From contig SVRA01000001.1 in assembly GCA_015065075.1 (NCBI GenBank), forward strand, positions 12,234 through 76,233: a stretch of DNA of 64,000 nt, read 5' to 3'. Each line of letters opens with the position of its first letter. Position 1 is the stretch's first letter. Positions 25,192 to 60,304 of the stretch are shown here, in pieces. The translations under genes were made by a program, and so were the position numbers. The notes below the pieces were generated by a model. The model worked only from the letters and a program-made list of their open reading frames with translations, was not told where the DNA came from and searched no databases. This DNA is from Oscillospiraceae bacterium (GTDB lineage: Bacteria; Bacillota; Clostridia; Oscillospirales; CAG-272).

Positions 25192-26739
25192 ATGACGTTC
25201 ACAATCTTTTCACTCGTATCAATAATAGCAATTGCCTTCAGCGTGGGCAAGGGCGCGTATAACGGACATCGCAGAGGAAGTACGAAAGCATTCGTTTCTC
25301 TTTTGTGTGTTATTTTCTCGCTTTGCATAGGAGCTCTCCTTTCTTCGCGCGTTTATGCTTCTTCGGTAGGTAATGCGGTAATATCGCTGCTGCAATCAAA
25401 TGAATCTATCGGTTCCTTGCTTGGAAGCATTGGACGGCTTGATGCTGTAGTGAGTGCGATCGTAGCTATGATAGTATCTCCGATAATATTTTTGATCGTG
25501 TTTTTGATCCTGAGGCTGATATGCCACATCGTCATGTCGATCGTTTATAAAAAGGCCCTTCAAGGTGTCGATAAGACCGAGTACCGCGTTGGAGAGAATG
25601 ACGGCTGGTATAAGCGCAACGATAAAAAAATAGGCGCCGTTGTGGGAGGCATAACGGGATTTCTTACCGTGCTGATACTGTTTTCACCTATAATAGGTAC
25701 GCTTAAGGCGGTCGATTCGGTTACAACTATGATATACGGCGACAGAAGGGGAGCTGTACGAGAGCAGGAAAATGATGATCAGGCAGACGCTCGCAGCGCC
25801 GACTACTCAGAGGAGGGTAGCTCAAAGAGCGCGATCGACATCGTGTCCGATTATGCCAACGACTTTGCAGGCACTGTAATGTATTATTGCGGAGGCAAAG
25901 CTATATATGATATGAGCGCCAGGGCAGAGATCGACGGACATACGGTAATATTGACACAGGAGATCGAGTCGGTTTCAAATATAATGCAGGATCTCTCAGA
26001 GGTCGCCCCCGCACTTACTGACATCGGCAGCTTTAGCACCGAGCACGTAGAAAAGCTTGAAAATATATGCGTGGCGTTAGACGATTCTTATTTTTTGAGT
26101 CTGTTGTCTTCATCCGTAGTATCCTCAGCGTCGCAGAGTTGGGTTATGAGAGAGGATTTTATAGGTATACCAAGACCTGATTTCAACTATTCGATATCTT
26201 CGTTTTGTGACAGTATCCTCTCGGTTTTGGCTACCACGACGCCTGATACGGTCAGCTCGGATCTTTCAACGTTCATGCGTGTATGCGACATAATAATGAA
26301 TTCAGGGCTTCTCCAAACCGACGGGGATTATATGGCTATAATGGCGATGATGGAGGACGGCAGCTTTTTGAACGATCTTATCGGTGAATTGGAAAAGAAT
26401 CCAAGGACCGCTCATTTGGTAGATTCACTTCACCTGTTTGCTATGAATTCCTTGGTCAATACCCTTAAGTTTGACGGATATGACGTTGCGGAGTATTACG
26501 GATTGATGGAAGACATCGCGGAGCAGTTCAACCGTATGAACGGTCAGACCCACGAGAAGAAGGTTGAGGACCTTGCTAATTATACGGTGGAATATTTGCA
26601 GGATTACGGCGTTGATATTCCCACAGAGGTGGCAAAGGTCGTTGCGGACGCTATGCTGACCGATATACCTAATTCGGACGGATACATTACCGCCGAACAA
26701 ATGCAGGAATTTTTCGATAAATATTATCAAGGAAACTGA
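25192..26739 (+). CDS. CvpA-like polytopic membrane protein with large C-terminal helical domain of unknown function
   Basis: 515 aa. The N-terminal roughly 170 aa hold four TM helices arranged like the CvpA/colicin V production family. The remaining roughly 330 aa are soluble with no recognised motif. Confidence 0.6.
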   Translation: MTFTIFSLVSIIAIAFSVGKGAYNGHRRGSTKAFVSLLCVIFSLCIGALLSSRVYASSVGNAVISLLQSNESIGSLLGSIGRLDAVVSAIVAMIVSPIIFLIVFLILRLICHIVMSIVYKKALQGVDKTEYRVGENDGWYKRNDKKIGAVVGGITGFLTVLILFSPIIGTLKAVDSVTTMIYGDRRGAVREQENDDQADARSADYSEEGSSKSAIDIVSDYANDFAGTVMYYCGGKAIYDMSARAEIDGHTVILTQEIESVSNIMQDLSEVAPALTDIGSFSTEHVEKLENICVALDDSYFLSLLSSSVVSSASQSWVMREDFIGIPRPDFNYSISSFCDSILSVLATTTPDTVSSDLSTFMRVCDIIMNSGLLQTDGDYMAIMAMMEDGSFLNDLIGELEKNPRTAHLVDSLHLFAMNSLVNTLKFDGYDVAEYYGLMEDIAEQFNRMNGQTHEKKVEDLANYTVEYLQDYGVDIPTEVAKVVADAMLTDIPNSDGYITAEQMQEFFDKYYQGN

Positions 26740-26772
26740 TCAAATTAAAATCAGTTGTTTTGGAGAGATCAT

Positions 26773-27474
26773 ATGTTTGATACCATACTCAAAGACTTGT
26801 TCGAGATATTGCTGTGCCTTATAAGCATAGCTATATATGTTTTTGCCGTGGGCTCGGTGTTGCCTTCGTGGCTCTTGCGCTTAAGATGTTCCGTGCAGGA
26901 CAGAGGTCTTAATAAATATACGTATCCGAGCGGTAGAGGAATACTTTATGAACCGCACCCAACGTTGAGAAAATACGTAAGCTCGTATATACTCTTTGTT
27001 GACAACGGGGTGAAATACATAAGGTGTAAGGCCACCGACGGTGTTGAACGGATATCGTATTCCGTGGCCGTGTTTGACAGACACGGCAAGGTGATAGAGG
27101 TGCTTAAGACCACTGATGTCATAGGGCCCGCGGGTTGCACAAGGCGCGTTGCTTTGCCCAAGGAGACCTCGTACGTAACGCTTATGCTTGATGCGGTCAA
27201 TGAAAAAAAGATAGATAGCGCTACACAACTGACGCTTGACAAGAAAAAGGGAATAGCTTTTGGCGGACTTGTCGTCGTGCTTACGGTCATAGAAGCGTTT
27301 ATAATAAGAGCGATGATGCTTAAGGCGGTAAATCTCGTTAGAGTGTATCTGATGGGAGATTCGGCATTGGAAATAAGCGGAGCATTCGTATTTGTTGCGG
27401 CGGTGGTAATAAGTGCCGTTGGATTGGGCGCTATGTTCCTCAAAAAAAGAAAAGGCGGTCTTAAGATAAAATGA
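26773..27474 (+). CDS. hypothetical membrane protein (N-terminal TM, beta-rich middle domain, two C-terminal TM helices)
   Basis: The ORF track starts at TTG 26755, but the ATG at 26773 has RBS ggagag. The middle domain resembles that of the next gene. Confidence 0.6.
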   Translation: MFDTILKDLFEILLCLISIAIYVFAVGSVLPSWLLRLRCSVQDRGLNKYTYPSGRGILYEPHPTLRKYVSSYILFVDNGVKYIRCKATDGVERISYSVAVFDRHGKVIEVLKTTDVIGPAGCTRRVALPKETSYVTLMLDAVNEKKIDSATQLTLDKKKGIAFGGLVVVLTVIEAFIIRAMMLKAVNLVRVYLMGDSALEISGAFVFVAAVVISAVGLGAMFLKKRKGGLKIK

Positions 27475-27998
27475 GTGAAATAGATAAGATCACGGTAAAG
27501 GGAATTTACAAATATCCGCAAGCGGATGGATTTGTCAGTGTCAAGCAATTTATGTTCGTTTACAGAGAAGGTGTCAAGCACCTGATTTTGAGATGCTCGA
27601 ACGATACTGAAACTGTGTTGAGAACCGTCAGCTTCGTGCTTACGGAGCTTGACCGCGACGGCGCGGTGATAAGGGATCGCCGACTGTCATATGACGATAT
27701 AAACGCCGAGGCGGGAGCGATGTTTTCGTCGAGCAAGGGAATACCCTTGTCGGACGAATGCGTTGATTTCAGGATCCACTTCGTAAGGGCTAAGTCGGAT
27801 AAATATATTTATAAGGTCACGGGAAAAAGAGCGTATGCATATTATTTTCCCAAGAAAACCGAACGCAGATCGAAAATTTTTGATTTTGGATTTTCGGCAA
27901 GCCGATTTGATATGTCGCAGTTCAAGCCGACGGCGACTTTGATGGTAGGAGCATTGCTGCTGCTCATCACAGCATTGACCGTTATATCTCTTCTTTGA
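27471..27998 (+). CDS. hypothetical tail-anchored membrane protein, paralogous domain to the preceding gene
   Basis: 175 aa. Overlaps the upstream stop by 4 nt. C-terminal TM helix ATLMVGALLLLITALTVISLL. Confidence 0.6.
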   Translation: MSEIDKITVKGIYKYPQADGFVSVKQFMFVYREGVKHLILRCSNDTETVLRTVSFVLTELDRDGAVIRDRRLSYDDINAEAGAMFSSSKGIPLSDECVDFRIHFVRAKSDKYIYKVTGKRAYAYYFPKKTERRSKIFDFGFSASRFDMSQFKPTATLMVGALLLLITALTVISLL

Positions 27999-28052
27999 TA
28001 GGTCAAGATTTTCAGCGTGGTAAACAAACCTTATTTTACTTTGGAGAAAACG

Positions 28053-31000
28053 ATGTTCAAATATAACAGTATGATCTCAAGCATTAAGGACGACGACAAG
28101 GTGAGGATACTCACCGATGTTATGTCCTTGTCAGACGGAGAGAGAGTGCGTCTGGGGATCCCGGGATTTGCCGTTCTCAATATGCGACGTATGCTAAAGG
28201 ACGGAAAATATCCTTCGCCTCAGGCGTTGGCTCATTCATGGGACAATAAGCTTATATACGAGCTGTCGGGGGAGGTCGCGCTTTCCGCTGCAAGCTCGGC
28301 ATCAAGCGTGATATTAACACCGGGTGCAAAGGTGAAGCTATCTCCCTACAGAAACGAAATGTCGGAGGATATATATCTTTCACGGTCGCTTGCGACCGAG
28401 TTCGCGCGCGGGGTAAAGTACGCGGGCTCTGCGGCGGCTGTGTCGGGATATTATCTGTCGGATACTGACGTCGAGTGGATGGATGCCTCGCCTTCAAGGG
28501 CAGTCTTGCACGAGTTTTTGATAGAGCCGTTCAAGCGCACTCTTATTGACGGACAGGCGCCTGCGGTAATTACCGATAGACGTATTCTTGCAAATGAATA
28601 TTCAAACGAAAATGCATATTTATCGGACGAGAAAATGGGTAACGTGCCTAGCGGTACTTGCGTAGTAGCAAAGCGCGTTTCTGCGGAAGACACCGTGCCG
28701 TTCCTCGTAAATGGAGGAATATGCCTTAAGGGCTCGCAATCAGCCCTTGAAAACGCTCTTAAAACCTACTATAAGCTTCAAAAGAAGCAGGAGTCGGGTG
28801 AGGTCACTATGGGCGAGGTTGAAGCCGAGATAAAAGCGGGCAGAGCGATCTCCCCCGAGCTTATTGACGCTGCTCTTGAAAGATTATTCACTTTCCTGCT
28901 TAAATCGGATGCGGAGAAGGGCAAAAGGCTCCTTCCCGATCAAAAGGAACAGCTTGCGTTGCGCGCGACAAGAAGCTCCGTGGTTCTTTTGAAGAACGAA
29001 GGCGCAATGCTTCCCTTGAATATAAAAAACGTATCCTCGGTCGCTCTGATAAGCGGTATAGCGGATGAAAGCGGTCTTCTTGACAGATGTGAGGCACAGC
29101 TTTTAGCTAACGGAGTCGGTAAGGTAGAAAAGGCAAGGGGGTATGATTTTACTAAGGACGTCGCGACAAGCGATGACGATTGCCTTGAGGCACTTTCGGC
29201 AGTCGGCACGTGCGATCTGACGATCTTGTTCGTGGGACACGGCGAAAAGCGAGGAAACGATATTTCCTTATCGCATAAAGTATCTTTGCCCGCAAATCAG
29301 CTTGAATTGGCAGATAGGCTAATTCCTCATGCCAAAAAGGTCATCGTGGTTTTGGAAACCGGATATGGTGTTGATATGGCGTTTGCGGAGCCTTTCTGTG
29401 CGGTTATGCTGGCACCCTTTGGAGTGAGAAACGACGCTTCCGTGATAATTGATACGCTGCTTGGCAAGTCCGAGCCCTTGGGCCGATTGCCGTATACGCT
29501 TTATTCCGATATTGACGGATATTCAGAGAAGCATTTGTCGTATCGCGATAAATACGGCGTTAAATCGGGTAGATTCGTGGGATACAGATATTATACAACT
29601 GCGGGTCTTCAGGAAAAATATCCGTTCGGACACGGGCTTTCATATACGAAATTCGCTTATTCAAAGCTTGAGGTGAGCGGCAATACGGTCAGCTTCACGG
29701 TTACTAATACGGGTAAGCGTGCAGGCAGAGAGGTCGCCCAGATATACGTGGGATCGAAGGATTCTCGATTGATACGACCTGCTCGTGAGCTGTGCGGATA
29801 CGCCATTGTCGACCTTAACGTCAAGGAAAGCAAGCGTGTCAGTGTAGAAATTGAGCTTCCTGCGGTATTCGACGAGAACAGTAACAGCATGATAGTTGAA
29901 AAGGGAACGTACACCGTTTACGTGGGTTCGTCCTCAACCGATATAAAGCTGAGTACTAAAATTCACGGTGGAAGTGAAACCGTAAGCGCAGGATCGGAAG
30001 ATAAGCTTTACGAGTATCTTCAGACCGAATCAAACATTATAGGTGACAAATATACTTTAGAGGCAGGTTACAAACTTATGAAGAGATCCATAAAAAATAT
30101 AGTATGCGGAATAGGAGCGAGCGTCCTGGCGATAGCTCTCGGTGTATATAACGCATTAACGTCGTCTGCGACGTTTTTGGGAGTGCTTACCGCGATACTT
30201 GCGGTAACGGGAATAATTTTCTTTATCGTTGACGCGGTTGAGAAGAACAAGGCATATGCTAAAGAGCGCGAAATGATAGCCAAGGAAAATCAGAAGCACT
30301 TTGAAGACGCTGAAAAGCTTGAGGAATTCTCTGCGGAAAATATGTTCAGAACCGAATTTGACGCAGTGTCGGAAAATCAGAACGACACGCAACAGGTTAC
30401 CGTAAAGGAGCACAAGAGCTACGACGAGTCGCTCAAATACGTAGACAAAAAGCTGGATTTCGCCCGTGCGACCAAGGAGTTCAAGGTTTTTGCGCTTGAG
30501 AGAGGGCTTATGCTTGACGATGAAGTGGTGAAGGGCATTTTCGCGTCTGTTTCCGCTTCGAGAATGTTGGTATTCAAGGATATGAGCTCGGAGGATTTCA
30601 AGAGCTTGATATCGGCGCTCTCCGAATATTTCGGAACGAAGACCTACATTGATAAGGTTGATCCTTCGTATGTTAACGAGGAAAGCGCCCTTTTCGCAGT
30701 AGATGAAGAGGGACACCGTGTCAAGAAGAATATGACTTATGCTATCGAAAGCGCCTTGAACGTCAAGGAAAAGCTGCATATAGCCGCGCTCGACGGTGTT
30801 AAATCAGAGGATATGATGGTGTACTTTGCTCCTTACGTTAAGCATGCGAAGAATCCGTTTGGATATACCTCGGTGGTCGCGCATAACGAGCGTAATAAGG
30901 AAACGGCGTACTATATACCCAAGAATATATGGTTTGCGATAAACCTTGCTATTGGTGAATCCTACGATATGATCCCCGACTTTCTCTCTGAGATAGCAAC

Positions 31001-31610
31001 GGTAAATCGTATCTCGATCTCAAAGAGCACACCCTCGAATAAACACTCGGATTTTGGCAATTTCTATTATTATCAGCTGGACTACATAAGTGAGCGTGCC
31101 GTAAACCGTTACGTTATAGGTGAGGAGCTCTGGAAGAAGATAGACTCTCTTGAAAAGCGCGTAAAGAGCATTGCGCCCGAATTTGCGATAAACAACAAGA
31201 TGTGTTTGGCATTTGAAAAGAGTGCGGCAGCGCTGATGGCAGCAGGGCTCGAAATAAAGCAGAGCGTTGATATGGCTCTGGCGGTAAAGATCATGCCCTC
31301 GATTCTGTTCGTGACAAGCGGCAAGAAGACCGAGTCGGGAGACTCGATCGTTGAGATATTTGATTCGGTTTTCGGTGACGACGATATGATGAAGTGCGCC
31401 GAGGTGATCAAGGATGCCGAAACCTATAAAAAAGACAGCTATTCACAGCCCGAGACAGTTCAGAATTCGGATATCGAATACGAGGTCAAAACGACAGAAG
31501 ATGATAAGGCAGACGTAGCCGAGGCCGTTGACTTGGCAGAGGATACCGCAGACGTAAATGAAGATCAATCGCCCTCTGATAGCGAAGATTCAAATAAAGA
31601 TCAGGATTAA
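28053..31610 (+). CDS. multidomain protein: divergent glycoside hydrolase family 3-like region + Fn3-like domain + TM hairpin + degenerate McrB-like AAA+ domain + acidic tail
   Basis: The ORF runs from GTG 28017, but the ATG at 28053 has RBS ggaga.
- GH3 hallmarks: LGIPGF, SVVLLKNEGAMLPL, LGRLPYT, GHGLSYTKF and an Fn3-like REVAQIYVG...RELCGYAIVDL.
- Two TM helices at 30099-30239.
- The C-terminal region aligns with the downstream ATPases but has Walker A DMSSEDFK and Walker B LDGVK. Confidence 0.8.
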   Translation: MFKYNSMISSIKDDDKVRILTDVMSLSDGERVRLGIPGFAVLNMRRMLKDGKYPSPQALAHSWDNKLIYELSGEVALSAASSASSVILTPGAKVKLSPYRNEMSEDIYLSRSLATEFARGVKYAGSAAAVSGYYLSDTDVEWMDASPSRAVLHEFLIEPFKRTLIDGQAPAVITDRRILANEYSNENAYLSDEKMGNVPSGTCVVAKRVSAEDTVPFLVNGGICLKGSQSALENALKTYYKLQKKQESGEVTMGEVEAEIKAGRAISPELIDAALERLFTFLLKSDAEKGKRLLPDQKEQLALRATRSSVVLLKNEGAMLPLNIKNVSSVALISGIADESGLLDRCEAQLLANGVGKVEKARGYDFTKDVATSDDDCLEALSAVGTCDLTILFVGHGEKRGNDISLSHKVSLPANQLELADRLIPHAKKVIVVLETGYGVDMAFAEPFCAVMLAPFGVRNDASVIIDTLLGKSEPLGRLPYTLYSDIDGYSEKHLSYRDKYGVKSGRFVGYRYYTTAGLQEKYPFGHGLSYTKFAYSKLEVSGNTVSFTVTNTGKRAGREVAQIYVGSKDSRLIRPARELCGYAIVDLNVKESKRVSVEIELPAVFDENSNSMIVEKGTYTVYVGSSSTDIKLSTKIHGGSETVSAGSEDKLYEYLQTESNIIGDKYTLEAGYKLMKRSIKNIVCGIGASVLAIALGVYNALTSSATFLGVLTAILAVTGIIFFIVDAVEKNKAYAKEREMIAKENQKHFEDAEKLEEFSAENMFRTEFDAVSENQNDTQQVTVKEHKSYDESLKYVDKKLDFARATKEFKVFALERGLMLDDEVVKGIFASVSASRMLVFKDMSSEDFKSLISALSEYFGTKTYIDKVDPSYVNEESALFAVDEEGHRVKKNMTYAIESALNVKEKLHIAALDGVKSEDMMVYFAPYVKHAKNPFGYTSVVAHNERNKETAYYIPKNIWFAINLAIGESYDMIPDFLSEIATVNRISISKSTPSNKHSDFGNFYYYQLDYISERAVNRYVIGEELWKKIDSLEKRVKSIAPEFAINNKMCLAFEKSAAALMAAGLEIKQSVDMALAVKIMPSILFVTSGKKTESGDSIVEIFDSVFGDDDMMKCAEVIKDAETYKKDSYSQPETVQNSDIEYEVKTTEDDKADVAEAVDLAEDTADVNEDQSPSDSEDSNKDQD

Positions 31611-31621
31611 GGAGATCGCAA

Positions 31622-32944
31622 ATGCTAAACTTTACAATGGCCAACGCGTTTGGCTCAATTCCAGCCGCATTTATGTCGCTTACTGATCTTTTGTCTTCTC
31701 CCGGTGCGATCTTTACTTATCTCTTCGTAGTGCTAGCGGCAATAGCGGTCATAGTTATCGCCATTATCATTAAGGAAAGAGGTCAGTCGGGCGCGGTAGA
31801 GTATAAGATTTCTTATGACGGCGCGGCAGCCCCCAAAACGAAGAAAGAGGAGCCCGAGGAGACCGGAGAGCGCTTCTATATGCTGAGTACGATAGACGGC
31901 AATGAGAAGAGTTATATGAGAACGAGCTACGATAAAGGAGTAACGCTCAAGGAGCTGTGCGACAATTTCAGGAACTACTCTGCAAGTAATCTGGGACTGT
32001 ATTACGATATCGAGGATATCAGAAGATTTATTGCAGGCATGTCGGTATCACATATATTGATACTTCAGGGTATGTCGGGAACAGGTAAGACCTCGCTTGC
32101 GTACGCTTTCGGCTCGTTTATGGATAATTCGTCAACGGTAATACCCGTACAGCCTATGTGGAAGGAAAGGACTGACCTTATAGGATACTATAACGAGTTT
32201 ACGAAGAAATTTAACGAAACGCTCCTGCTTGAGAAGATGTACGAGGCGAATTACAGTGAGGATATATACATATCGGTGCTCGACGAGATGAATATTGCGA
32301 GAGTAGAGTACTATTTTGCTGAATTTTTGTCACTTTTGGAGCTTCCGAACCCCGACGACAGATATCTTGAGGTAGTGCCTGACAAATGGCCTACAGACCC
32401 GAAGAATCTGATCGAGGGAAGAATAAAGCTGCCGAGCAATATGTGGTTTATCGGAACGGCAAACAACGACGACTCGACGTTTGCGATATCGGATAAGGTA
32501 TATGACAGAGCGATGGTGTTGAATCTTGACACGAGAAGCGAGAGATTTGCGGCACCGTTGACCGAGAAGATGCATATATCGGCGAAGCAGTTCAAGGAGC
32601 TAGTAGATGAAGCGATAAAGGAATATGATATCAGCAGAAGAAACAGAGCAAGACTGGAGCAGCTGGACAAATATCTTGTCGATCATTTCCATATCACGTT
32701 CGGAAACCGAATAATGAAGCAGATAAGAACGTATATTCCGGTGTATATAAGCTGCGGAGGCGACGAGCTAGATGCACTTGACGACATATTGTCGAAGAAG
32801 GTAATGAGAAAGCTTGAAACGCAGAACCCGATATATCTGAGAAACTCAGCCGAGGGACTTATATCGTTCCTTGACGAATTGTTCGGTCAGGATAAGATGA
32901 CCTTGTGCAAGGACTTTATCCACAGACTCCAGAGAAACGCCTAA
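31622..32944 (+). CDS. membrane-anchored McrB-like AAA+ NTPase (paralog 1)
   Basis: 440 aa.
- One N-terminal TM helix.
- Walker A GMSGTGKT (32069-32092).
- Walker B VLDEMN (32276-32293), followed by IARVEYYFAEFLSLLE, as in the McrB segment DEINRANLSKVFGE.
- FIGTANNDDS, an NxxD-type motif as in McrB NTAD.
- No DNA-binding N-terminal domain. Confidence 0.8.
   Translation: MLNFTMANAFGSIPAAFMSLTDLLSSPGAIFTYLFVVLAAIAVIVIAIIIKERGQSGAVEYKISYDGAAAPKTKKEEPEETGERFYMLSTIDGNEKSYMRTSYDKGVTLKELCDNFRNYSASNLGLYYDIEDIRRFIAGMSVSHILILQGMSGTGKTSLAYAFGSFMDNSSTVIPVQPMWKERTDLIGYYNEFTKKFNETLLLEKMYEANYSEDIYISVLDEMNIARVEYYFAEFLSLLELPNPDDRYLEVVPDKWPTDPKNLIEGRIKLPSNMWFIGTANNDDSTFAISDKVYDRAMVLNLDTRSERFAAPLTEKMHISAKQFKELVDEAIKEYDISRRNRARLEQLDKYLVDHFHITFGNRIMKQIRTYIPVYISCGGDELDALDDILSKKVMRKLETQNPIYLRNSAEGLISFLDELFGQDKMTLCKDFIHRLQRNA
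31829..32944 (+). repeat. 1.1 kb direct repeat, copy A (ATPase module)
   Basis: Near-identical to 34921-36036 at a constant offset of 3092 bp. The encoded 371 aa are identical. The differences I found (31831, 31837, 31912, 32932) are all synonymous. Confidence 0.95.
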
Positions 32945-32959
32945 AAAGGAAATTACCGT

Positions 32960-34660
32960 ATGAACGAGTTAGATACATATTATCGAGCACTGCTCGAGTT
33001 GCGAAACACAACGAATAGTGTCCGACAGTGTGCGATGCTAAACGCGGCTATCGCCGCGGCTGACGCCGAGGATGACAAAATAGTCGTAACGCGCGCAAAG
33101 TGCACCGTCGACGAGGATTGGATATGCGCTATTGAGGAAGGTCTTATACATATCGAAAAGGCCATCAAGGAGGAGCGTCAGTTTATACGCTCCAACGGCG
33201 AGGTCATTCCGATAGAGAAGGTGAAGAACGTGTCCAAGGAATCTGTACAGCACCTGGCAAGACACGGAAATCTCATCACTCACGTGCCCGAGGACGAAAA
33301 CGATATCGTGCCCGATAAGCTCTTTTCGGTAGAGCGACTCAACGATTATACCGTGTACGAAAACCGTTTTCTGTATATGCTGCTGTGCTATCTTCGCGAT
33401 TTTGTCACGCTGAGATATAATAAGATCCTGGATCTTACAAATAAATACGACGGCGCGCTTACTATGAATAAGACCGTATCGTCCGCAAAGAGAAAGATGA
33501 CATTCGTCTTAGATCTCAAGGAAGAGCGCCGCGACGACAGATACCTGAGCAACAACAATAAGGCAAAGCCGCTTATCGACCGAATAGACATCATTCTTAA
33601 GACTATATTGGCATTTTTGGCGACTCCGCTTATGGAATACGCGTCAAAGGTGGCTATGCTCAAGCCCCCGATAACCAAGACCAACGTATTGAAGATGGAT
33701 AACAACTTCAAGGGCGCGGTCAAGCTTTACGATTTTATAATAGCTTACGACAAGGTGGGCTATTCCGTTGAAAACGAGGCGCTCACCATCTCTCCCTTTA
33801 ACGATAACCTTGCGGCAGAGCTTGCCGATTGTAGCGCTTTGATATCTTTTATAACCTACGAGTACGGACTCGGTATAACCTCCGAGCTCAAGGACCGTTA
33901 TATAGAAAATGAAAGCCGCCGCAAGCTAGAGGAGCTCAGAAAAAAGACCGAGCAGCTCGAGGCGCTCTCAAGAAGACTCAAGAAGTCCGACGTGAGCGTT
34001 GAGGAATATATACTTGCTTTAGAAAAGCACGTGCGCGCCCTTGACGCCGAGTGCGCAAAGATCGAGGCGCTCAGAAATGAAATATCGGCTATGAAGGCCG
34101 CCGAGCGTGAGCATATCGCCAAGATCGGCGAGCTGACCGAGGCGGTAGATCTTGTCAAGCAGGAGCTGAACGAGGAAAAGCACAATCACTTGGCGGAAAA
34201 AGCCCTCCTTCAAAAGCAACATCAGAGCGATATGGATGCTCTTTGCCAAACTCACAGAGATGAGCTCCGCGTCAACAACGAGCGCCATGAAAAAGAGCTT
34301 GAGGAGATCCGCTTGCACATTGGCAAAATGGAAAACGACTTTGCCGCACAGCTTGATCGTGAGAGGGCAGTATCGCAGTCGGTACGCGACGAATTAGCCA
34401 AAAAGACCGAGAAATACGATCAGCTATACGAGAGATTTCTCTTGGCAGAGGCGATCGCGAACGGGGTGCGTGCCCGCCGAGGAGAAGAATTGGGCGATTT
34501 CACCGATAAGGAGAGCTTTGACGAGCTCGAAAAGCAGTACAACGCCTTTCTGCGCTTCTATAAGAAGGAATGGCAAAAGACTAAGAAGAAGATAAGAAAG
34601 AATACGCTCAAGATTGAAAATTTTAAGAAAACGAAAGACGACAGTGACGGTCTTGAATAA
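32960..34660 (+). CDS. coiled-coil protein in the McrC-equivalent position, no recognisable nuclease domain
   Basis: 566 aa. The N-terminal roughly 300 aa are globular, including YTVYENRFLYMLLCYLRDFV. The C-terminal roughly 260 aa are heptad-rich E/K/L/R coiled coil ending in a basic tail, KKEWQKTKKKIRKN. It lies between the two McrB-like genes. Confidence 0.65.
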   Translation: MNELDTYYRALLELRNTTNSVRQCAMLNAAIAAADAEDDKIVVTRAKCTVDEDWICAIEEGLIHIEKAIKEERQFIRSNGEVIPIEKVKNVSKESVQHLARHGNLITHVPEDENDIVPDKLFSVERLNDYTVYENRFLYMLLCYLRDFVTLRYNKILDLTNKYDGALTMNKTVSSAKRKMTFVLDLKEERRDDRYLSNNNKAKPLIDRIDIILKTILAFLATPLMEYASKVAMLKPPITKTNVLKMDNNFKGAVKLYDFIIAYDKVGYSVENEALTISPFNDNLAAELADCSALISFITYEYGLGITSELKDRYIENESRRKLEELRKKTEQLEALSRRLKKSDVSVEEYILALEKHVRALDAECAKIEALRNEISAMKAAEREHIAKIGELTEAVDLVKQELNEEKHNHLAEKALLQKQHQSDMDALCQTHRDELRVNNERHEKELEEIRLHIGKMENDFAAQLDRERAVSQSVRDELAKKTEKYDQLYERFLLAEAIANGVRARRGEELGDFTDKESFDELEKQYNAFLRFYKKEWQKTKKKIRKNTLKIENFKKTKDDSDGLE

Positions 34661-34665
34661 TTGTT

Positions 34666-36036
34666 ATGGGAAATAAAAAGATAGACAAAAAGTGGATATT
34701 TTTGATGATCGCGGTTGCAGTTGCCACGCTTTTGTTGGCATACGCGCTGAGCACGGCAGACCTTAGCTCTATGCTGAACGGTGCAGTGCGCCCACAGCAC
34801 GTCAGGGCGATAATAATATTTATGATCGCGATTCCGATCCTTCTTATCGCGCTGATTGCGGTTATGCTCCTGATGAAGCCTGAGACGAAGACGGTGGTAA
34901 CGCATATGCCCGACGTAGTTGCTCCCAAGACGAAGAAAGAGGAGCCCGAGGAGACCGGAGAGCGCTTCTATATGCTGAGTACGATAGACGGCAATGAGAA
35001 GAGCTATATGAGAACGAGCTACGATAAAGGAGTAACGCTCAAGGAGCTGTGCGACAATTTCAGGAACTACTCTGCAAGTAATCTGGGACTGTATTACGAT
35101 ATCGAGGATATCAGAAGATTTATTGCAGGCATGTCGGTATCACATATATTGATACTTCAGGGTATGTCGGGAACAGGTAAGACCTCGCTTGCGTACGCTT
35201 TCGGCTCGTTTATGGATAATTCGTCAACGGTAATACCCGTACAGCCTATGTGGAAGGAAAGGACTGACCTTATAGGATACTATAACGAGTTTACGAAGAA
35301 ATTTAACGAAACGCTCCTGCTTGAGAAGATGTACGAGGCGAATTACAGTGAGGATATATACATATCGGTGCTCGACGAGATGAATATTGCGAGAGTAGAG
35401 TACTATTTTGCTGAATTTTTGTCACTTTTGGAGCTTCCGAACCCCGACGACAGATATCTTGAGGTAGTGCCTGACAAATGGCCTACAGACCCGAAGAATC
35501 TGATCGAGGGAAGAATAAAGCTGCCGAGCAATATGTGGTTTATCGGAACGGCAAACAACGACGACTCGACGTTTGCGATATCGGATAAGGTATATGACAG
35601 AGCGATGGTGTTGAATCTTGACACGAGAAGCGAGAGATTTGCGGCACCGTTGACCGAGAAGATGCATATATCGGCGAAGCAGTTCAAGGAGCTAGTAGAT
35701 GAAGCGATAAAGGAATATGATATCAGCAGAAGAAACAGAGCAAGACTGGAGCAGCTGGACAAATATCTTGTCGATCATTTCCATATCACGTTCGGAAACC
35801 GAATAATGAAGCAGATAAGAACGTATATTCCGGTGTATATAAGCTGCGGAGGCGACGAGCTAGATGCACTTGACGACATATTGTCGAAGAAGGTAATGAG
35901 AAAGCTTGAAACGCAGAACCCGATATATCTGAGAAACTCAGCCGAGGGACTTATATCGTTCCTTGACGAATTGTTCGGTCAGGATAAGATGACCTTGTGC
36001 AAGGACTTTATCCACAGACTCCAAAGAAACGCCTAA
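34666..36036 (+). CDS. membrane-anchored McrB-like AAA+ NTPase (paralog 2)
   Basis: 456 aa. Unrelated N-terminus with two TM helices, then 371 aa identical to paralog 1. Confidence 0.8.
   Translation: MGNKKIDKKWIFLMIAVAVATLLLAYALSTADLSSMLNGAVRPQHVRAIIIFMIAIPILLIALIAVMLLMKPETKTVVTHMPDVVAPKTKKEEPEETGERFYMLSTIDGNEKSYMRTSYDKGVTLKELCDNFRNYSASNLGLYYDIEDIRRFIAGMSVSHILILQGMSGTGKTSLAYAFGSFMDNSSTVIPVQPMWKERTDLIGYYNEFTKKFNETLLLEKMYEANYSEDIYISVLDEMNIARVEYYFAEFLSLLELPNPDDRYLEVVPDKWPTDPKNLIEGRIKLPSNMWFIGTANNDDSTFAISDKVYDRAMVLNLDTRSERFAAPLTEKMHISAKQFKELVDEAIKEYDISRRNRARLEQLDKYLVDHFHITFGNRIMKQIRTYIPVYISCGGDELDALDDILSKKVMRKLETQNPIYLRNSAEGLISFLDELFGQDKMTLCKDFIHRLQRNA
34921..36036 (+). repeat. 1.1 kb direct repeat, copy B (ATPase module)
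   Basis: See copy A. The repeat ends exactly at the stop codon, and the flanking sequences differ. Confidence 0.95.
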
Positions 36037-36076
36037 AGGGGCAAAACAATAACTATATATAGAGAAGTTTTTAATT

Positions 36077-38833
36077 ATGAACAGATCAAAATTGATTATC
36101 ATACTTAGCGCGGCTATACTTTGTGTAGTGACGGTATTGTGCGTGATGCTGGTGATGATATTTCCGAGCTTGACCGAAAACGTAAACAAGCTGGTGTTTG
36201 AGTCGGAAAGCTGTGAGAGCTATTACGACGGAACCGCTTTAACGGGTACTAAGTGGTCGTTGGTTTCGGGAGAGCTGAAGCCGGGACACACCGCCCAGGT
36301 AACCCTTTCGGGCAGTCAACGCTACGTGGGAACGACACCGAATCTTATGCAGATCGTAATAGTTGATTCCAACGGAAAAGACGTAACGTCACGATACAAT
36401 ATAGAGTGCAAACCGGGAACGCTGACTGTAAAGCCCGCCAATATAACGATCGTCAGTAACTCCAGGGCCAAGATATACGACGGCCAGCCGCTATTTGACG
36501 GTGGGTACATGTTGCTTCCCGAGGACGCGTTGCCGTCGGGGCACGTGTTGGACGTTGAAATAACGGGAAAAATAACCGAAATAGGTGAGACGGCGAATAC
36601 TATATCCCGTGTCGTCGTGTATGATGTTGGCGGAAAAGATATTTCCTTTAATTTCAACATCATTCCCGTTGAGGGACGCCTTGTCGTTTTGGATGAGGAC
36701 GACCCCAGACTCAATCTTGATATCAACAAGGACGGCATGCCCGACTTGAATATAGATTTTGACGGCGACCTGATTCCCGATCTGAATATAGATCTTAACG
36801 GAGATTTTTTATCAGACCTGAACATAGATCTTAACGGCGACCTTCTGGCTGATCTTAATATAGATCTTAACGGAGATATGCTGTCCGATCTTAATATAGA
36901 TCTTAACGGAGACAGATTATCTGATCTTAATATAGATCTCGACGGAGATAAGATTCCCGATTTGAATATAGATCTTGATGGAGATAAGATCCCTGACGTG
37001 AATATAGACGGTGACGGAGATAAGATACCCGACCTGAACATAGATATCGATGGGGATAAGCTTCCCGATGTGAACGTAGATATTGACGGTGACGGTATCC
37101 CGGATATAAACATCGACGGACTTGGCAACGGAAACAGTAATGGCAACGGGAACGGAAACGGAGGCTCGGGCAAACTCGACATCAGCGGAAATATCGGTTC
37201 GGGAGATTTGAACGGAGATGGAAAGAAGACCGTATGTTACAAAGTAACGTCGGACTCCACGGACAGGATATACCTCAAAGTAACTAATTTCGGAAGCTAT
37301 AACGGAAAACAGTGGTCGGCTGCCAAGCAGTACGACGAGCTTATATACGGTTCCTTCTCGGCTTCGTATCTGCCGTCGATAGCGATGCTCAATTCAGGCA
37401 GAATGCCGAGCAACGTATACGTTGAGGTGTTGAACGAGCAGGCGGTAGTGCCGTATTATTCATACGGATTGTTATGGAGTGAAAGCGACATTGCGGTTTC
37501 ATATCAGGATGAAAATTTGGAATTCGTTTGCTTTGGCGGAGGACATAGGGGCTTAACGACGCCTTACGATCTTTACGATTACGAGGAAAGATACAGAAGC
37601 TTTGTTTACGAAAATTATCTTGATATAGACCCTGATACGTTTGGGTATATGCAAAAGATAATCGAAGCAAACGGATTTTCCGCAAGCTCACCCGGTGTGA
37701 TAGAAGCGGTTGCCGAATATATTCAGCAATCCGCAAAATACGATCTCAAATACGACAGATCCCTCGATAAAGAGGACAATATAGTAGTCAAATTCCTTGA
37801 CGAATACAAGACGGGTATATGTCAGCATTATGCAAGCGCAGCGACGCTTTTGTACAGAGCTCTCGGAATACCCGCAAGATACACCGTGGGATTTGTTTGC
37901 GATGCCGTTGCGGGAAAGACCGTAGAGGTCACTGCAATGCAGGCACACGCTTGGGTAGAGGTTTATATAGACGGCTTGGGCTGGATATTCGTTGAAGTAA
38001 CGGGCTCGGACGGATCGGGTGATATTCAGGAAAATCCCAATAAGATCACCGTGACTCCATCAAGCTGCGAAAAGAGATACGACGGACAGCCGCTTGTGGC
38101 AGAAAACGAGATTCAGATGACTCCGGCGATTCTGAATCTGATCAATAATGGATACACCCTCGTTACCGTTGTTTCGGGAGAGAGGACCGACCCGGGCAAA
38201 TCCGAGAGCTTTATCGCGGATATTCGAATATACGATCCTTTTGGCGAGGACGTTACACACGAATTCCAGATCGAGCGCAAGACGGGTGTCGTGCACGTGT
38301 ATATAGGAGAGTTCTACTTCGCGAGTGAAACCGTTTCCAAGGAATACGACGGAACGGCGCTTGAGGGCGATCTGTCTAACCTTGTATATATGGGAGCGGA
38401 CTTCGACGCGACCAATTATACGTATCAAGCAACCCCGTCGATCTTGGCTAACATCAAAAACGTGGGAAGTACCCAAAACTCGTTCAATGTGAAAATATTC
38501 AACGAGAATAACGAAGACGTTACCGATATGTACAAGATCGTAAAGCAGTGGGGATCTCTGGAAATAGAACCGAGGAGCATTACCGTGACTGCGGGAAGCG
38601 CTACGGCGTCTTATACGGGAGAGCCACTCGTTTGTAATGATATCTTCGTTACAAGCGGAATACTGGTTGAAGAAGAATACATATTTGATTACGTTGTTGA
38701 GGGCTCACAGACAGACAGAGGCCGCTCCGACAATATAGTCAAGAGCATTACCATATACGATGCAAATGGTAACGACGTAACCCAGAATTACGCCATAGTC
38801 TTTGAAAAAGGTACGTTGAGAGTAACGAACTAA
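36077..38833 (+). CDS. membrane-anchored transglutaminase-like (Cys protease fold) surface protein with MBG (YGX-type) repeats and an acidic 9-aa repeat array
   Basis: 918 aa.
- N-terminal signal anchor.
- MBG-like modules ending ...YNIECKPGTLTVKP and ...NYAIVFEKGTLRVTN.
- TGase core GICQHYASAATLLYRALGIPARYTVGF...HAWVEVYIDGLGWIFVEVT, with the Cys codon at 37820. Confidence 0.85.
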   Translation: MNRSKLIIILSAAILCVVTVLCVMLVMIFPSLTENVNKLVFESESCESYYDGTALTGTKWSLVSGELKPGHTAQVTLSGSQRYVGTTPNLMQIVIVDSNGKDVTSRYNIECKPGTLTVKPANITIVSNSRAKIYDGQPLFDGGYMLLPEDALPSGHVLDVEITGKITEIGETANTISRVVVYDVGGKDISFNFNIIPVEGRLVVLDEDDPRLNLDINKDGMPDLNIDFDGDLIPDLNIDLNGDFLSDLNIDLNGDLLADLNIDLNGDMLSDLNIDLNGDRLSDLNIDLDGDKIPDLNIDLDGDKIPDVNIDGDGDKIPDLNIDIDGDKLPDVNVDIDGDGIPDINIDGLGNGNSNGNGNGNGGSGKLDISGNIGSGDLNGDGKKTVCYKVTSDSTDRIYLKVTNFGSYNGKQWSAAKQYDELIYGSFSASYLPSIAMLNSGRMPSNVYVEVLNEQAVVPYYSYGLLWSESDIAVSYQDENLEFVCFGGGHRGLTTPYDLYDYEERYRSFVYENYLDIDPDTFGYMQKIIEANGFSASSPGVIEAVAEYIQQSAKYDLKYDRSLDKEDNIVVKFLDEYKTGICQHYASAATLLYRALGIPARYTVGFVCDAVAGKTVEVTAMQAHAWVEVYIDGLGWIFVEVTGSDGSGDIQENPNKITVTPSSCEKRYDGQPLVAENEIQMTPAILNLINNGYTLVTVVSGERTDPGKSESFIADIRIYDPFGEDVTHEFQIERKTGVVHVYIGEFYFASETVSKEYDGTALEGDLSNLVYMGADFDATNYTYQATPSILANIKNVGSTQNSFNVKIFNENNEDVTDMYKIVKQWGSLEIEPRSITVTAGSATASYTGEPLVCNDIFVTSGILVEEEYIFDYVVEGSQTDRGRSDNIVKSITIYDANGNDVTQNYAIVFEKGTLRVTN
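36710..37120 (+). repeat. about 14 tandem 27-bp (9-aa) repeats encoding DLNIDLNGDxLx / DxDGD acidic loops
   Basis: The repeat is visible at both DNA and protein level, for example cttaatatagatcttaacggagat. It is followed by a (GN)n linker at 37121-37165. Confidence 0.9.
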
Positions 38834-38859
38834 CGAAAGTATAGATAGGGCAGGTTTTT

Positions 38860-41800
38860 ATGCAATACGATAATTATCAAAAAAAGATAGATAAGGTTGC
38901 CTCTTTTATGAGGTGTATCTTCAAGCATATAGTGAAGATAAGTATAGCTGTAGCCATGATTGTGGTTGCAACTATAACCGTTCTCGCTACTAAAGGAATA
39001 ATTATTAGTGACGGCGCCTGCCCGAAGACTATGGTTTATGGCGAAAAAATGTCGCGCAATTCCAAAGCGTTTCTTTCCTCGGTAAAGTATGAGTACTGCG
39101 CCTACGGCACGAGCGACTGGAGCACCGAAGAGCCCGTTATGCCGGGTAAATATAACGTGCGTACGGTTTCTAACGCCTCCTTTGGCGCTAAAAGGTACGG
39201 AAAGGTAGAAACCTTTACTATTATGCCAAAGAGCATAACCGTGTATCCTTGTGACACCGTGGTATACGGCGATGATCTGATGCCGACGGCAGAGCTTGAG
39301 AGGGGAGATAACTTTTCCTCGTGCGATTTCGACGTTTTGAGTATAAGTACAGATAGTATGAAGATGTCGGCTATTGCGGATGCTTCAAGCGTGGTTATAG
39401 TCGATTCGGAGGGCAACGACGTAACGGCAGCGTACGATGTTTCGGTTTCGGTGGGCGATTCGAGGATAACGAAGCGTCCCTTGGCTTTGGAGATCGGTAG
39501 CAAAATTGCGGAATATGACGGAAATGAGTTGATATGTGAAGAATATCAGATAACCGAGGGAAGCGTAGTCAAGGGAAATCGCCTTGAGCTTGTTTTTGAC
39601 GACTATGTGCTGGACGTCGGCACGGTTTCAAACGATCCTATCATCAGTTTGACCGATAAAGACGGCAACGACGTGAGAAATTTTTACGAGTTGTCTATCA
39701 AAAGCGGAAGCTTGACACTGACGCCCCGTGATATTACGGTATCTACCAAGAGCAGGGAATTCACTTATGACGGACAACCGCACAGAGTGTTAGACATTAA
39801 GGTGTCAAACGGCACGCTTGTTGCAGGCCACTCTTTATTGTCTGGAAAGGCGACGGAGGTGGTAAATGCAGGCGAATACGAGAACGAAGTTTCGGCGTCT
39901 GTTATTGATTCGGATGGCAGAGACGTGACGCAAAATTATATCATTTCCTACGATTACGGAAAGTTGACGGTAAATAAAAGACCGATAACCATTACTACGG
40001 CAAGTGCAGAGTTCTTTTATGATGGAACTTATCACAGTGAACCTTTCACCTATAGTGATAATCTGGCTGTAGATCACGTGATCAGACCTGTTTTCCAGGT
40101 AGTAGGTTCTGATGTTGATGAAGATGCGGAGCCTGAGATCAGAAACGTAGGATCGATTTCCAATGCTTTTGACTGTCGTATTCTGGACGTTGTATATTAT
40201 GACGTTACCGACAACTACGAAATAACCTACGAATATGGAACTATTACAATTGTTCCGCGTCCTATAATAATACGTACCCATAGTTTAAGCGTTATGTACG
40301 ACGGTGAAGAGCACAGTGCCCCCGATTTTGAAATATTTTTGGATCTTGATAGGGACGGAAAGCCGGACGGAACATATGAGGTAGACGAGCCGTGGATAGA
40401 TGAAGTTTATCCTGACATAGACGTAGATTATCCTGGAATAAACGTAGATGACAGTGTGATCAACGACATACCTGGCGACGATGTTTATTTCTATTACTAC
40501 GGTATTCCGGCAACCGATGCCGTAACCTTAGTGTCATATACTACCATAACCGATGTGGGAGAGCTAAAGAACGTCGTCGAAATAGATATATCGAGCGATC
40601 TCGATTCGGGTATGGAAAACTACGAGATAACGTACGAATACGGTACTCTTGAAGTCACCAAACGTCCCATAACCGTAAAGCCCACGGACGTACAGGTGAT
40701 TTATAACGGACAATCTCAGGGTGGAGTGGATGTTGAGGTAGCGTATTGGTCGACACAGCTTGTAAACGGACACGCTTTGAAATTTGACGGTATAATATCC
40801 GGCTCTCGCATTGACGCAGGATACGAGCAACTTTCCCTCATCGGAGAATGCTTCGTATTCAACGGAGATCAGGATATATCCTATAACTATGATGTTACCT
40901 TTGAAACGGGAACTCTGGAGATCCTGCGCCGTCCCATATACGTATACACGGGAAGCAGTGAAAAGATGTACGACGGTACTTGGCTGACCGACTCTAGGTA
41001 CAGCGTGTGGGATCCGGTATTTGATAATGTGGTCCCTTGGTCTTCGTGGATTACGACTGACGCGGAGCCGTTTACGGACGAGATAGGTTTAGAGTATTAT
41101 GATCTTGTAGCAGGTCACGAGCTTATTCTTACCACCGACGGTATGATAATCGACGTGGGAACGGTTGAAAACACTGTATCTGAGTATAGCATTTTATCGG
41201 GTGATGACGATGTCACTCACAACTACGACATTTACTTTGATTACGGCGAATTGACGATCACCCCGAGAAAAATAACCGTAGCGACTGCAACTAATTCGTG
41301 GATATACGACGATACCGTGCACGAAGATCTTAATTTTGAGGTGGTATCGGAGATCGACCTCGTGGGATCGCACTCGTTGTATATGTACAACTATACTTCC
41401 ATTGAAAATGCGGGTACGGTGGATAACGTTCTTGACTTTTGGGTGGTCGATGAGAACGGATGGGATATCTCCTACAACTATGAGATAACCTACGAATACG
41501 GAACGCTTACCGTTGTCCCGAGACCTATAACGGTGCAGACGGATTCAATGTCGTGGGTGTATGAGGACGTATATTTCGCGTATGACTCTTTCAGCATAAC
41601 GGATGGCGAGATAATTTGGTATCATAGTTATTGGCCTGTAGATGTTGCAAGCATTCGTGACGTCGGATCCTGTGATAACGTTATCAAGATAGAGATATAT
41701 GACGGTGAAGAGAACGTCACGGGCAATTACAACATATCCTACGATTACGGAACCTTGTCTGTAACTCCCCGACACATAACGGTTACCTCGGGCTCGAGAT

Positions 41801-51489: not shown

Positions 51490-51528
51490 ATTATGAATTA
51501 TAATGTTTTTATAGGGAGATTGTCAAAA

Positions 51529-52239
51529 ATGTACGCTCGTGCCATAAAAAGAATCATAGATCTTGTTCTTGCAATCGTAGGTATAATCGTACTGGCTTTG
51601 CCGATGCTGATCGTAGCCATCATCATTAAGATCGAGTCCAAGGGTCCCGCTATTTTCGTTCAAGAGAGAGTCGGCAAGGGCGGAAAAGTCTACAAGATGT
51701 ACAAATTCCGTTCTATGTGCGTCGGTGCAGAGCAGCAGGAGGGCGGAGTTTATTGCGTCAAGGGTGATAAGCGCGTCACAAAAGTGGGTAAATTCATTCG
51801 CGCAACGAGCATTGACGAGCTTCCGCAATTGGTGAATATAATCAAGGGCGAAATGTCCTTTATCGGTCCCCGTCCCGTTCTTACATATTACCCTAAACAG
51901 TGGGAAGAGTACACCGAAGAGGAATTAAGACGCTTCGATGCTCGCCCGGGCGTGACGGGTTGGGCTGCGGTGCACGGCAGAAAGACCAATACAGTCAAGG
52001 CACGCTTTGAATACGATAATTATTACGTTGATAACCTGACCTTCGGTTTGGACGTTAAAATCTTCTTTATGACGATCAAGACGGTCTTTACAAACGAGGG
52101 CAACGAGGACGACGGCTCCTCCGAGGTCAAAACCGAAGAAGCAAAGACCTCTGTGGAAATTTCTGAAGCCGAGAATAATGTAAGCGCGGCACAAGAGATC
52201 GCGATGGCACAAGATGCGGACGATATCAAGAAAAGTTGA
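51529..52239 (+). CDS. polyprenyl-phosphate sugar phosphotransferase (bacterial sugar transferase, small WbaP/WecA-unrelated PGT type)
   Basis: The start at 51529 has RBS gggaga. One TM helix, with KFRSM and IDELPQLVNIIKGEMSFIGPRP signatures. Confidence 0.88.
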   Translation: MYARAIKRIIDLVLAIVGIIVLALPMLIVAIIIKIESKGPAIFVQERVGKGGKVYKMYKFRSMCVGAEQQEGGVYCVKGDKRVTKVGKFIRATSIDELPQLVNIIKGEMSFIGPRPVLTYYPKQWEEYTEEELRRFDARPGVTGWAAVHGRKTNTVKARFEYDNYYVDNLTFGLDVKIFFMTIKTVFTNEGNEDDGSSEVKTEEAKTSVEISEAENNVSAAQEIAMAQDADDIKKS

Positions 52240-52251
52240 TAAGGGGCGTAA

Positions 52252-54163: not shown

Positions 54164-54244
54164 AAGCCGCAAGGACACTGAATTTTGCCAATAAGGCAAA
54201 TCAAACAAACTTGTGTCGCCGTTGGCGACGGAATGGAGATTTTA

Positions 54245-56010: not shown

Positions 56011-56011
56011 G

Positions 56012-57085: not shown

Positions 57086-57104
57086 ACGTTAGGAGATAAA
57101 GGAT

Positions 57105-58421: not shown

Positions 58422-58422
58422 A

Positions 58423-60276: not shown

Positions 60277-60304
60277 TATGAATGTTTATCAATAGAACAC
60301 AGAT

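Follow-up and report, generated by a model that had tools for sequence, protein, structure and literature searches.

The window analysed here, a 64,000-nucleotide (nt) stretch of contig SVRA01000001.1 from an Oscillospiraceae bacterium, carries a gene for a protein of 566 amino acids (aa) that lies between two genes for McrB-like AAA+ nucleoside triphosphatases (NTPases). This target gene starts 15 nt past the stop codon of the 440-aa AAA_5/McrB-like gene and ends 5 nt ahead of the 456-aa McrB-like gene (Table 1), and the spacing of 5-40 nt between neighbouring genes suggests that all three belong to one operon, spanning 25192-43854 on the + strand. A preliminary description of this DNA had placed the protein in the position of McrC and proposed that a coiled coil and a basic tail stand where a nuclease would be expected; our results support this reading, and the placement between two McrB-like genes is borne out by the open reading frame (ORF) map, by Pfam AAA_5 matches on both sides and by matches of both neighbours to E. 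coli McrB. The four peptides quoted in that description were found in the 566-aa translation: YENRFLYMLLCYLRDFV (133-149), RRKLEELRKKTEQLEALSRRLKK (320-342), ALRNEISAMKAAEREH (370-385) and KKEWQKTKKKIRKNTLKIENFKK (536-558). McrBC is the textbook GTP-driven restriction motor and, to our knowledge, all of its characterised members cut nucleic acid. The target protein is very probably an McrC homologue, no nuclease domain was detected in it by Pfam or Foldseek, and its locus reads as a membrane/envelope cluster rather than a restriction locus.

Table 1. Coordinates of the target gene, its parts and the other genes and repeats of the operon (positions are those of the window)
Feature	Position	Strand	Properties or basis
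Target gene	32960..34660	+	ATG start, 566 aa; probable nuclease-less McrC/CnuC homologue
Target layout: DUF2357-type N-domain, then helical rod, then conserved C-terminal helix	32960..34660	+	Family and DUF2357 comparisons
N-terminal globular domain, residues 1-306	32960..33877	+	Alignments, AlphaFold2 (AF2) model, hhalign match to 75-318
Putative McrC 'finger', residues 52-160	33113..33439	+	Secondary structure, invariant columns, Pfam DUF2357 match
Heptad coiled-coil segment, residues ~307-409	33878..34186	+	Heptad layout, a/d scan, predicted helices 307-342 and 347 onward
Hendecad segment, residues ~410-465	34187..34354	+	Lag self-identity, repeat consensus, length classes
Conserved C-terminal helix and basic tail, residues 517-558	34508..34633	+	Alignment, predicted helix 517-549
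McrB-like AAA+ NTPase 1, 440 aa	31622..32944	+	Pfam AAA_5; one N-terminal transmembrane (TM) helix 32-50
McrB-like AAA+ NTPase 2, 456 aa	34666..36036	+	Pfam AAA_5; N-terminal TM hairpin 11-29, 49-67
Direct repeat copy 1	31829..32947	+	1118 bp, 5 mismatches to copy 2; linker, whole AAA+ core, stop codon
Direct repeat copy 2	34921..36039	+	Pair of copy 1
Three upstream membrane proteins, 515, 239 and 175 aa	25192..27998	+	Syntenic in related genomes
GH3-like/pseudo-McrB fusion, 1197 aa	28017..31610	+	Pfam, BLASTP, 7MS2 alignment, TM scan
Two giant proteins, 918 and 1664 aa	36077..43854	+	Transglutaminase core, N-terminal anchor, synteny

The conserved and variable parts of the target protein were defined with an alignment of 53 relatives, in which the N-terminal domain (N-domain, residues 1-306) is the best-conserved part, with 63-93% identity to the query among the 52 aligned relatives and conserved blocks that read ERQFIRSNGEVxPIEKVK, VYENRFLYMLL and KPPITKTNVLK. 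AF2 modelled it as a helix/strand fold, with a mean pLDDT (predicted local distance difference test) of 80.5 over residues 1-312. Pfam DUF2357 (PF09823) matched residues 76-164 of the query (E 1.5e-4) as well as other members of the family, 29 of 92 distinct sequences in all (15/53 and 15/40 in two sets; best E 1.1e-7 and 1.2e-8). The phage collection yielded a single distant McrC-like match (tblastn), contig MT835511.1 (here L035), and BLASTP aligned residues 67-306 of the target with residues 144-384 of the DUF2357 protein encoded there, at 25% identity (E 4e-11). The likeness of the N-domain to McrC/DUF2357 domains, initially a low-confidence suggestion, is thus supported at the family level by Pfam, BLASTP and hhalign. 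The last of these paired the target family with the family of the L035 DUF2357 protein, most members of which contain PF09823, at 96.1% probability (E 3.2e-9) over 231 columns (75-318 versus 153-395). Motifs common to both families are EVxPIExVK, ESxxxLAxHS, YENR and PxxxTN[VI]LxM[DN]; E. coli McrC bears a similar ANRII motif, so that (E/A)NR is common to the target and McrC.

In McrC of Thermococcus gammatolerans and E. coli, the finger domain is built of antiparallel helices and a beta stalk that is tipped by a loop-helix-loop (Niu et al. 2020, PMC7680126). The order of secondary structure predicted by AF2 for the corresponding region of the target, helix 52-79, strand 81-84, tip helix 93-102, strand 123-126 and return helix 129-160, agrees with the McrC finger as described there. 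Many of the invariant residues of the protein lie in this region, namely R73, Q74, F75, I76, S78, N79, G80, E81, I85, E86, K87, H98, L99, H102, P118, R126 and Y133-L138, and the return helix bears the invariant YENRF motif. Homology to the DUF2357 finger is therefore well supported at the level of sequences and profiles, and fold comparison, considered below, added no confirmation.

L035 was deposited as 'Bacteriophage sp.' from human faeces and carries a CoCoNuT-like gene set at about 55-7620. Its first two genes encode an MkoA-like helicase of superfamily 1 (SF1) and a protein resembling MkoB. Next come a coiled-coil/McrB fusion of 824 aa, which contains a helical insert and matches the PADLOC model PDC-M26A (E 2e-52), and then the 689-aa DUF2357 protein, which has CxxC zinc-ribbon motifs.

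The nuclease core that could not be seen at the outset was not found here either. Pfam detected no nuclease domain in the query or in the other 91 distinct family members, and Foldseek searches of PDB and BFVD returned no nuclease fold. A cryptic PD-(D/E)xK motif among the invariant residues of the N-domain was considered and rejected, since by-eye inspection of the alignment showed no fit. At the position of the McrC nuclease, the C-terminal half of the target is predicted to form long helices; beyond DUF2357, the L035 relative has a zinc-ribbon-containing C-terminal half, where the target has a helical rod instead. Pfam, NCBIfam and PADLOC likewise detected no nuclease, HEPN or toxin domain in the proteins of the operon. 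The preliminary description had drawn a comparison with the CoCoNuT class, to which the ATPases are related (39% identity to a CoCoNuT-type GTPase). In this branch, McrC homologues lacking PD-(D/E)xK have already been reported, with other nucleases in tandem (Bell et al. 2024, eLife, PMC11090510), whereas no tandem nuclease was detected here.

Residues ~307-510 are poorly conserved and vary in length among relatives, and AF2 predicts long helices at 307-342, 347-506 and 517-549 (pLDDT ~80-92). The continuous heptad coiled coil that had been described from about residue 300 is correct as regards the long helices but not as regards a heptad register throughout: a clear a/d heptad register is limited to ~322-409, where windows around 323-378 exceed the 99th percentile of shuffles in a/d occupancy, and hendecads follow from ~410. 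Beyond this position, mean family self-identity is 0.25, 0.20 and 0.19 at lags of 11, 22 and 33 residues, over a background of ~0.09. The repeat consensus, drawn from 309 His-anchored repeats, is H-E-x-E-[IMV]-x-x-L-[KN]-E-x; in the window protein the histidines are phased at 410, 421, 432 and 443. Across the family, the lengths of the middle region group into classes modulo 11, and homologues carry 0-12 hendecad copies. A global Fourier analysis of hydrophobicity over residues 347-506 did not rise above shuffles because the repeat register changes, whereas windowed and lag analyses did resolve the periodicity. The His and Glu residues at predicted core positions of the hendecads hint at metal or pH sensitivity.

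Conservation returns in the C-terminal helix, where the motif FTDKESFxELExEYxAFxxxYxxxWxKTKKxIRK is kept across relatives; F520, L523, E524 and K542 are invariant and E526, A529, F530, Y534, W538, I545 and R546 nearly so. This helix may be amphipathic, although its periodicity of ~3.64, with power ~1.8 standard deviations above shuffles, is suggestive only. The last 56 residues contain 23% Lys, and the basic stretch previously noted is present at 536-558; the terminus itself is acidic (TKDDSDGLE).

Both flanking NTPases carry the motifs GMSGTGKT (Walker A), LDEMN (Walker B) and NNDD (signature), and the core of NTPase 2 is identical in protein sequence to that of NTPase 1. Searched against all PDB sequences, each matched E. 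coli McrB only, with Walker A, Walker B and NNDD/NTAD aligned. They also matched PADLOC PDC-M26A (E 4e-46). The coiled-coil McrB homologue of L035 has the signature NQDE, and its GTPase part shows 39% identity to each of them (E 1e-65). In the NxD branch of McrB homologues, D or E usually follows the motif (Bell et al. 2024, PMC11090510); NNDD is compatible with NxD and a following D but, judged by motif alone, also aligns without gaps with E. coli NTAD (NxxD). The N-terminal parts of the two proteins consist of one or two TM helices and a short linker, with no coiled coil, and from hydropathy and the positive-inside rule we infer that the NTPases are membrane-anchored with cytoplasmic AAA+ domains.

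The two NTPase genes share a long direct repeat (Table 1). Eight genomes have both copies (the window and L001, L003, L005, L015, L016, L020 and L033); within each of them the 1071-nt NTPase cores are 99.6-100% identical, as against 67-90% between genomes. In every case the repeat begins right after the membrane anchor, and the single-helix and hairpin anchor types are each recognisably kept across species. Conserved, distinct anchors joined to near-identical cores imply an old duplication whose cores are being homogenised, which indicates sustained gene conversion between old adjacent paralogues. Collapse of near-identical copies by short-read assemblers may inflate these identities, but mismatches in the window and in L016 show that the copies are separate. 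Among the genome contigs that bear the target gene, 21 of 29 are just 2.1-3.4 kb long and most end inside the NTPase repeat; this is the size expected where assemblies break inside repeats, and the cluster is probably under-represented in annotations of metagenome-assembled genomes.

Upstream of NTPase 1 lies a 1197-aa protein that appears from its sequence to be a double pseudo-enzyme, a dead glycosidase joined to a dead McrB paralogue. Its glycoside hydrolase family 3 (GH3)-like part comprises Glyco_hydro_3_C (E 9e-25) and an Fn3-like domain in Pfam; aligned with the beta-glucosidase 7MS2, the nucleophile motif SDW is replaced by AKR (VVSDWGA to VVAKRVSA), and it is likewise missing at that position in homologues. 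A TM hairpin at 692-738 joins this part to the C-terminal 400 aa, which are homologous to the NTPases (BLASTP versus NTPase 1, E 1e-8) and have lost the Walker A and NxD signatures. Downstream of NTPase 2, the two giant proteins contain a Transglut_core domain (Pfam, E 1e-21 and 9e-21) and repeated, weakly MBG-like domains. By hydropathy and the positive-inside rule, the giants would be extracellular and N-terminally anchored, and the GH3-like and pseudo-AAA domains of the fusion protein would be cytoplasmic. No clear domain was recognised in the three membrane proteins at the upstream end of the operon, the 515-aa protein having a weakly CvpA-like N-terminal part.

Relatives of the target protein are numerous: at least 1768 hits were obtained in the 90% clustered database and 1226 representatives at 50% clustering (E up to 1e-3; 1038 at <=1e-10), all of them sharing the N-domain, a helical rod of variable length and the conserved C-terminal helix. 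Among the best 150 representatives, the match starts within the first few residues in nearly all, and most full-length members are ~520-1330 aa long. No name for the family was found in the source databases, and NCBIfam and PADLOC returned nothing useful for the target (no PADLOC model at E up to 0.1). All genome matches came from uncultured Clostridia, Eubacteriales or Oscillospiraceae of animal guts. Genes 4-9 of the nine-gene operon stand in the same order in 7/7 long related contigs, and genes 1-3 are kept wherever a contig extends to them, except in L033, a 38%-identity relative; the cluster is thereby found across species at 38-91% identity. An NTPase gene flanks the target on each side in every related locus with enough flanking sequence. 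Across species, conservation is highest in the NTPase core (66-96% protein identity) and in the N-domain of the target. The target family had no match in the plasmid collection or IMG/VR, and no mobile-element gene was present among the ten flanking ORFs scanned, while housekeeping genes in the window encode trigger factor, threonine synthase, phosphoglycerate mutase, D-Ala-D-Ala carboxypeptidase and a zinc ABC (ATP-binding cassette) transporter. In the related contigs examined, the distribution is that of a lineage-wide chromosomal cluster, not of a mobile defence island.

Compared with canonical McrBC, the target resembles McrC of E. coli and Thermococcus gammatolerans in its DUF2357-type domain, its McrB-like AAA+ neighbour, its predicted finger topology and the (E/A)NR motif; unlike McrC, it lacks the PD-(D/E)xK domain, in whose place stands a helical rod of 200 aa that is followed by a conserved C-terminal helix. 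Its partners differ from McrB in having TM anchors where McrB has a DNA-binding domain and in being encoded by two genes, not one. CoCoNuT systems are alike in several respects: the window NTPases are 39% identical to a coiled-coil McrB homologue and have a signature that fits the same N-x-D-(D/E) form (NNDD versus NQDE), coiled coils occur in both systems, and the target N-domain is homologous to the McrC-like DUF2357 domain of L035. However, the coiled coil is found solely on the McrC-like protein of the window, where it is C-terminal rather than inserted in DUF2357; the NTPases have TM anchors in place of the CnuB coiled coils; the target has neither an N-terminal beta-sandwich nor a zinc ribbon; no HEPN, PD-(D/E)xK, helicase or other nuclease gene was detected in the operon; and the locus is chromosomal and syntenic.

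A membrane-linked group, CoCoPALM, was named without detailed description by Bell et al. 2024 (PMC11090510) and could be compared by its description only. It is alike in having a TM segment on a McrB-like GTPase, apparently of the same branch, a coiled coil on the McrC homologue and a proposed link to surface structures, but differs in that the window NTPases lack the FtsB-like coiled coil, with no DivIC/FtsB Pfam match, and in that the window neighbours are a pseudo-GH3/pseudo-McrB fusion and transglutaminase-like surface giants; a signal-peptidase-family (pilus assembly) gene of the CoCoPALM type was not detected among the operon proteins at E up to 0.1. PADLOC PDC-M26 corresponds in part, in that its model A matches the NTPases and none of the PADLOC models matches the target. 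In MoxR-DUF58/VWA-transglutaminase operons (Pseudomonas TgpA; the Bifidobacterium PFNA cluster, PMC8430577), too, an AAA+ ATPase gene of the AAA_5/MoxR-McrB clade is found together with genes for transglutaminase-like proteins that are anchored in the membrane and extracytoplasmic. An operon of this MoxR/TgpA type was ruled out, because the window ATPase is McrB-type and the operon contains no VWA or DUF58 gene; here the adaptor is a DUF2357 protein. Literature on PDC-M26, CoCoPALM follow-up and McrB with transglutaminase contained no description of this cluster and no CoCoPALM follow-up. The architecture, which joins TM-anchored twin GTPases, a C-terminal heptad and hendecad rod, a pseudo-GH3/pseudo-McrB fusion and transglutaminase-like giants with no operon nuclease, has no match in the searchable literature, and it does without features that define canonical McrBC and CoCoNuT and, to the extent testable, CoCoPALM.

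Starting from the observed homology, gene order, conservation and repeat structure and from the lack of a detectable nuclease, we lean towards the view that the target, an McrC homologue with no nuclease, plugs and activates a ring of McrB-like proteins tethered to the membrane, probably forming an envelope-linked machine that does not act in restriction. Such a machine would most likely have originated in the NxD/CoCoNuT branch of McrBC and have become chromosomally fixed, envelope-associated and not DNA-cutting. In McrBC, the finger sits as a plug in the ring, where it stimulates NTP hydrolysis site by site, and a nuclease-mediated McrC dimer bridges two hexamers (PMC7680126, PMC6624300). 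By analogy, the DUF2357 finger would plug a ring of the two flanking membrane-anchored proteins, a ring that possibly also includes the inactive McrB-like domain of the GH3-like fusion encoded upstream, and would stimulate hydrolysis at one active site after another by means of a conserved basic residue, for which R136 of YENRF and K240 are candidates by their invariance. The helical rod would substitute for the McrC nuclease, which is also the dimerisation part of McrC, and probably serves both in oligomerisation and as a spacer; the C-terminal helix, with its conserved aromatic and basic residues, may dock onto another component or a membrane surface. Taken as a whole, the system would combine a membrane-tethered cytoplasmic motor with pseudo-enzyme domains that act as sensors or scaffolds and with transglutaminase-like giants outside the cell.

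Several observations weigh against this interpretation. The DUF2357 score of the query, 21.5 bits, is under the gathering cut-off of 23.3, the putative finger region has low AF2 confidence (pLDDT ~50-60), and hhalign assigned a probability of just 0.2% when the family profile was compared with E. coli McrC as a single sequence. The Foldseek comparison that had been proposed as a check found no likeness to solved McrC structures: neither the full-length nor the N-domain AF2 model had a match below E 0.1 in PDB, which as searched includes the McrC chains 6HZ4, 6UT6 and 7VSR, so that the homology is carried by sequence and profile evidence. A single BFVD match of the N-domain (E 7e-4) had a TM-score of ~0.1 and was uninterpretable, and the matches of a profile search in PDB sequences were confined to apolipoproteins and other proteins made of helical repeats; we took these matches to be compositional. 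Pore insertion and NTPase stimulation are proposed purely by analogy, the envelope role is read solely from gene neighbourhood and predicted topology, and the closest characterised or candidate relatives, CoCoNuT and PDC-M26, are defence systems.

A more specific version of the envelope-linked machine, which we offer tentatively, is that an McrBC-derived motor was permanently domesticated in gut Clostridia for a housekeeping envelope function, for example the assembly, anchoring or control of the surface giants. The His-lined hendecad rod might then sense metal or pH, the pseudo-enzyme fusion would serve as a sensor or ring subunit, and continuous gene conversion would hold the twin ring subunits identical because both have to fit into a single ring with a single McrC-like plug.

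The defence relationships of its relatives raise the alternative that the cluster is a membrane-bound anti-phage or abortive-infection offshoot of CoCoNuT/CoCoPALM, in which the McrBC-like module senses infection and a non-nuclease membrane or toxic effector is found among the operon proteins (CvpA-like, 239-aa or 175-aa). The NTPases do match the defence-candidate model PDC-M26A, their relative in L035 stands beside Mokosh-like helicase genes, nuclease-less McrC homologues and the membrane-linked CoCoPALM occur in the same branch (Bell et al. 2024), and three operon proteins have no recognisable domain. We nevertheless consider this unlikely: no domain of a nuclease, HEPN or other toxin was detected in the operon; the cluster keeps its gene order across species and seems to have been inherited vertically; it sits among housekeeping genes with no plasmid-collection or IMG/VR match; its NTPase core shows a conservation that is unusual and unlike that of fast-evolving defence genes; and half of the operon encodes predicted extracellular surface proteins.

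Eleven-residue repeats recall apolipoproteins and perilipins, and the target could instead be mainly a membrane-surface scaffold, its hendecads and C-terminal helix lying on the inner leaflet to organise the anchored NTPases and its DUF2357 domain serving only as an attachment module, with no NTPase activation. The strong hendecad periodicity and variable repeat number would suit such a role, as would Pfam Apolipoprotein matches, the best at E 2.8e-12, in those family members that have more repeats, the apolipoprotein-type PDB profile matches mentioned above, the predicted membrane anchors of the partner NTPases and the apparently amphipathic C-terminal helix with its conserved aromatic face and Lys/Arg flanks. 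However, the conserved H1, [IMV]5, L8 and E4 of the repeat fit a hendecad a/e/h core at least as well as a lipid face, the rod is strongly acidic (net charge -7 over 307-510), and the invariant charged residues E524 and K542 suggest protein-protein contact. The finger is the most conserved region, which argues for an McrC-like role in the catalytic cycle, and we regard the scaffold explanation as improbable, more so than a defence role.

That the gene between near-identical NTPases is an assembly artefact, or the target a decaying McrC remnant, was rejected as extremely improbable: short-read assemblers can collapse near-identical repeats and overstate identity, and most related contigs are just 2-3.4 kb long, but the same order recurs in 8 independent genomes, including contigs of 139-388 kb, the two copies of the window show 5 mismatches to each other and carry distinct, orthologously conserved N-terminal anchors, and the ORF is intact, full-length and strongly conserved in its N-domain, with at least 1768 relatives.

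If the envelope-linked machine is borne out, a large family (at least 1000 clusters at 50% identity) would retain the McrB ring and the McrC finger without a detectable nuclease, with a predicted membrane tether and as a fixed part of a conserved envelope gene cluster, and would show what the rotary-like McrB-McrC cycle does when uncoupled from cleavage. It would also represent a possible exaptation of immune machinery for cell biology, so far raised just in passing for CoCoPALM; should the system prove one more defence variant, its interest would be more modest. The near-identical NTPase cores in at least 8 species are a clean natural case of sustained gene conversion between adjacent paralogues, with the practical consequence that the repeat breaks most short-read assemblies at this locus.

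Several further features of the operon and its surroundings were recorded. The 239-aa and 175-aa membrane proteins (26755-27998), for which no family was recognised, each appear to consist of a beta-rich soluble part and TM helices and may be paralogues. Within the first transglutaminase-like gene, at least 9 tandem 36-nt units at 36743-37102 encode the 12-aa repeat DLNIDLNGDxxx, which looks calcium-binding and is followed by a GNGNGN run. Past the operon lie genes for two large predicted lipoproteins, at 44050-46470 (with a DDT/DT acidic repeat) and 47493-51347 (with a Thr/Glu-rich N-terminal region), in which no domain was recognised and which had no tblastn match in the related loci examined. 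They are followed at 51493-63848 by an exopolysaccharide-type locus that encodes a priming sugar transferase, an acyltransferase, family 4 (GT4) glycosyltransferases, UDP-glucose dehydrogenase and an EpsG-like polymerase.

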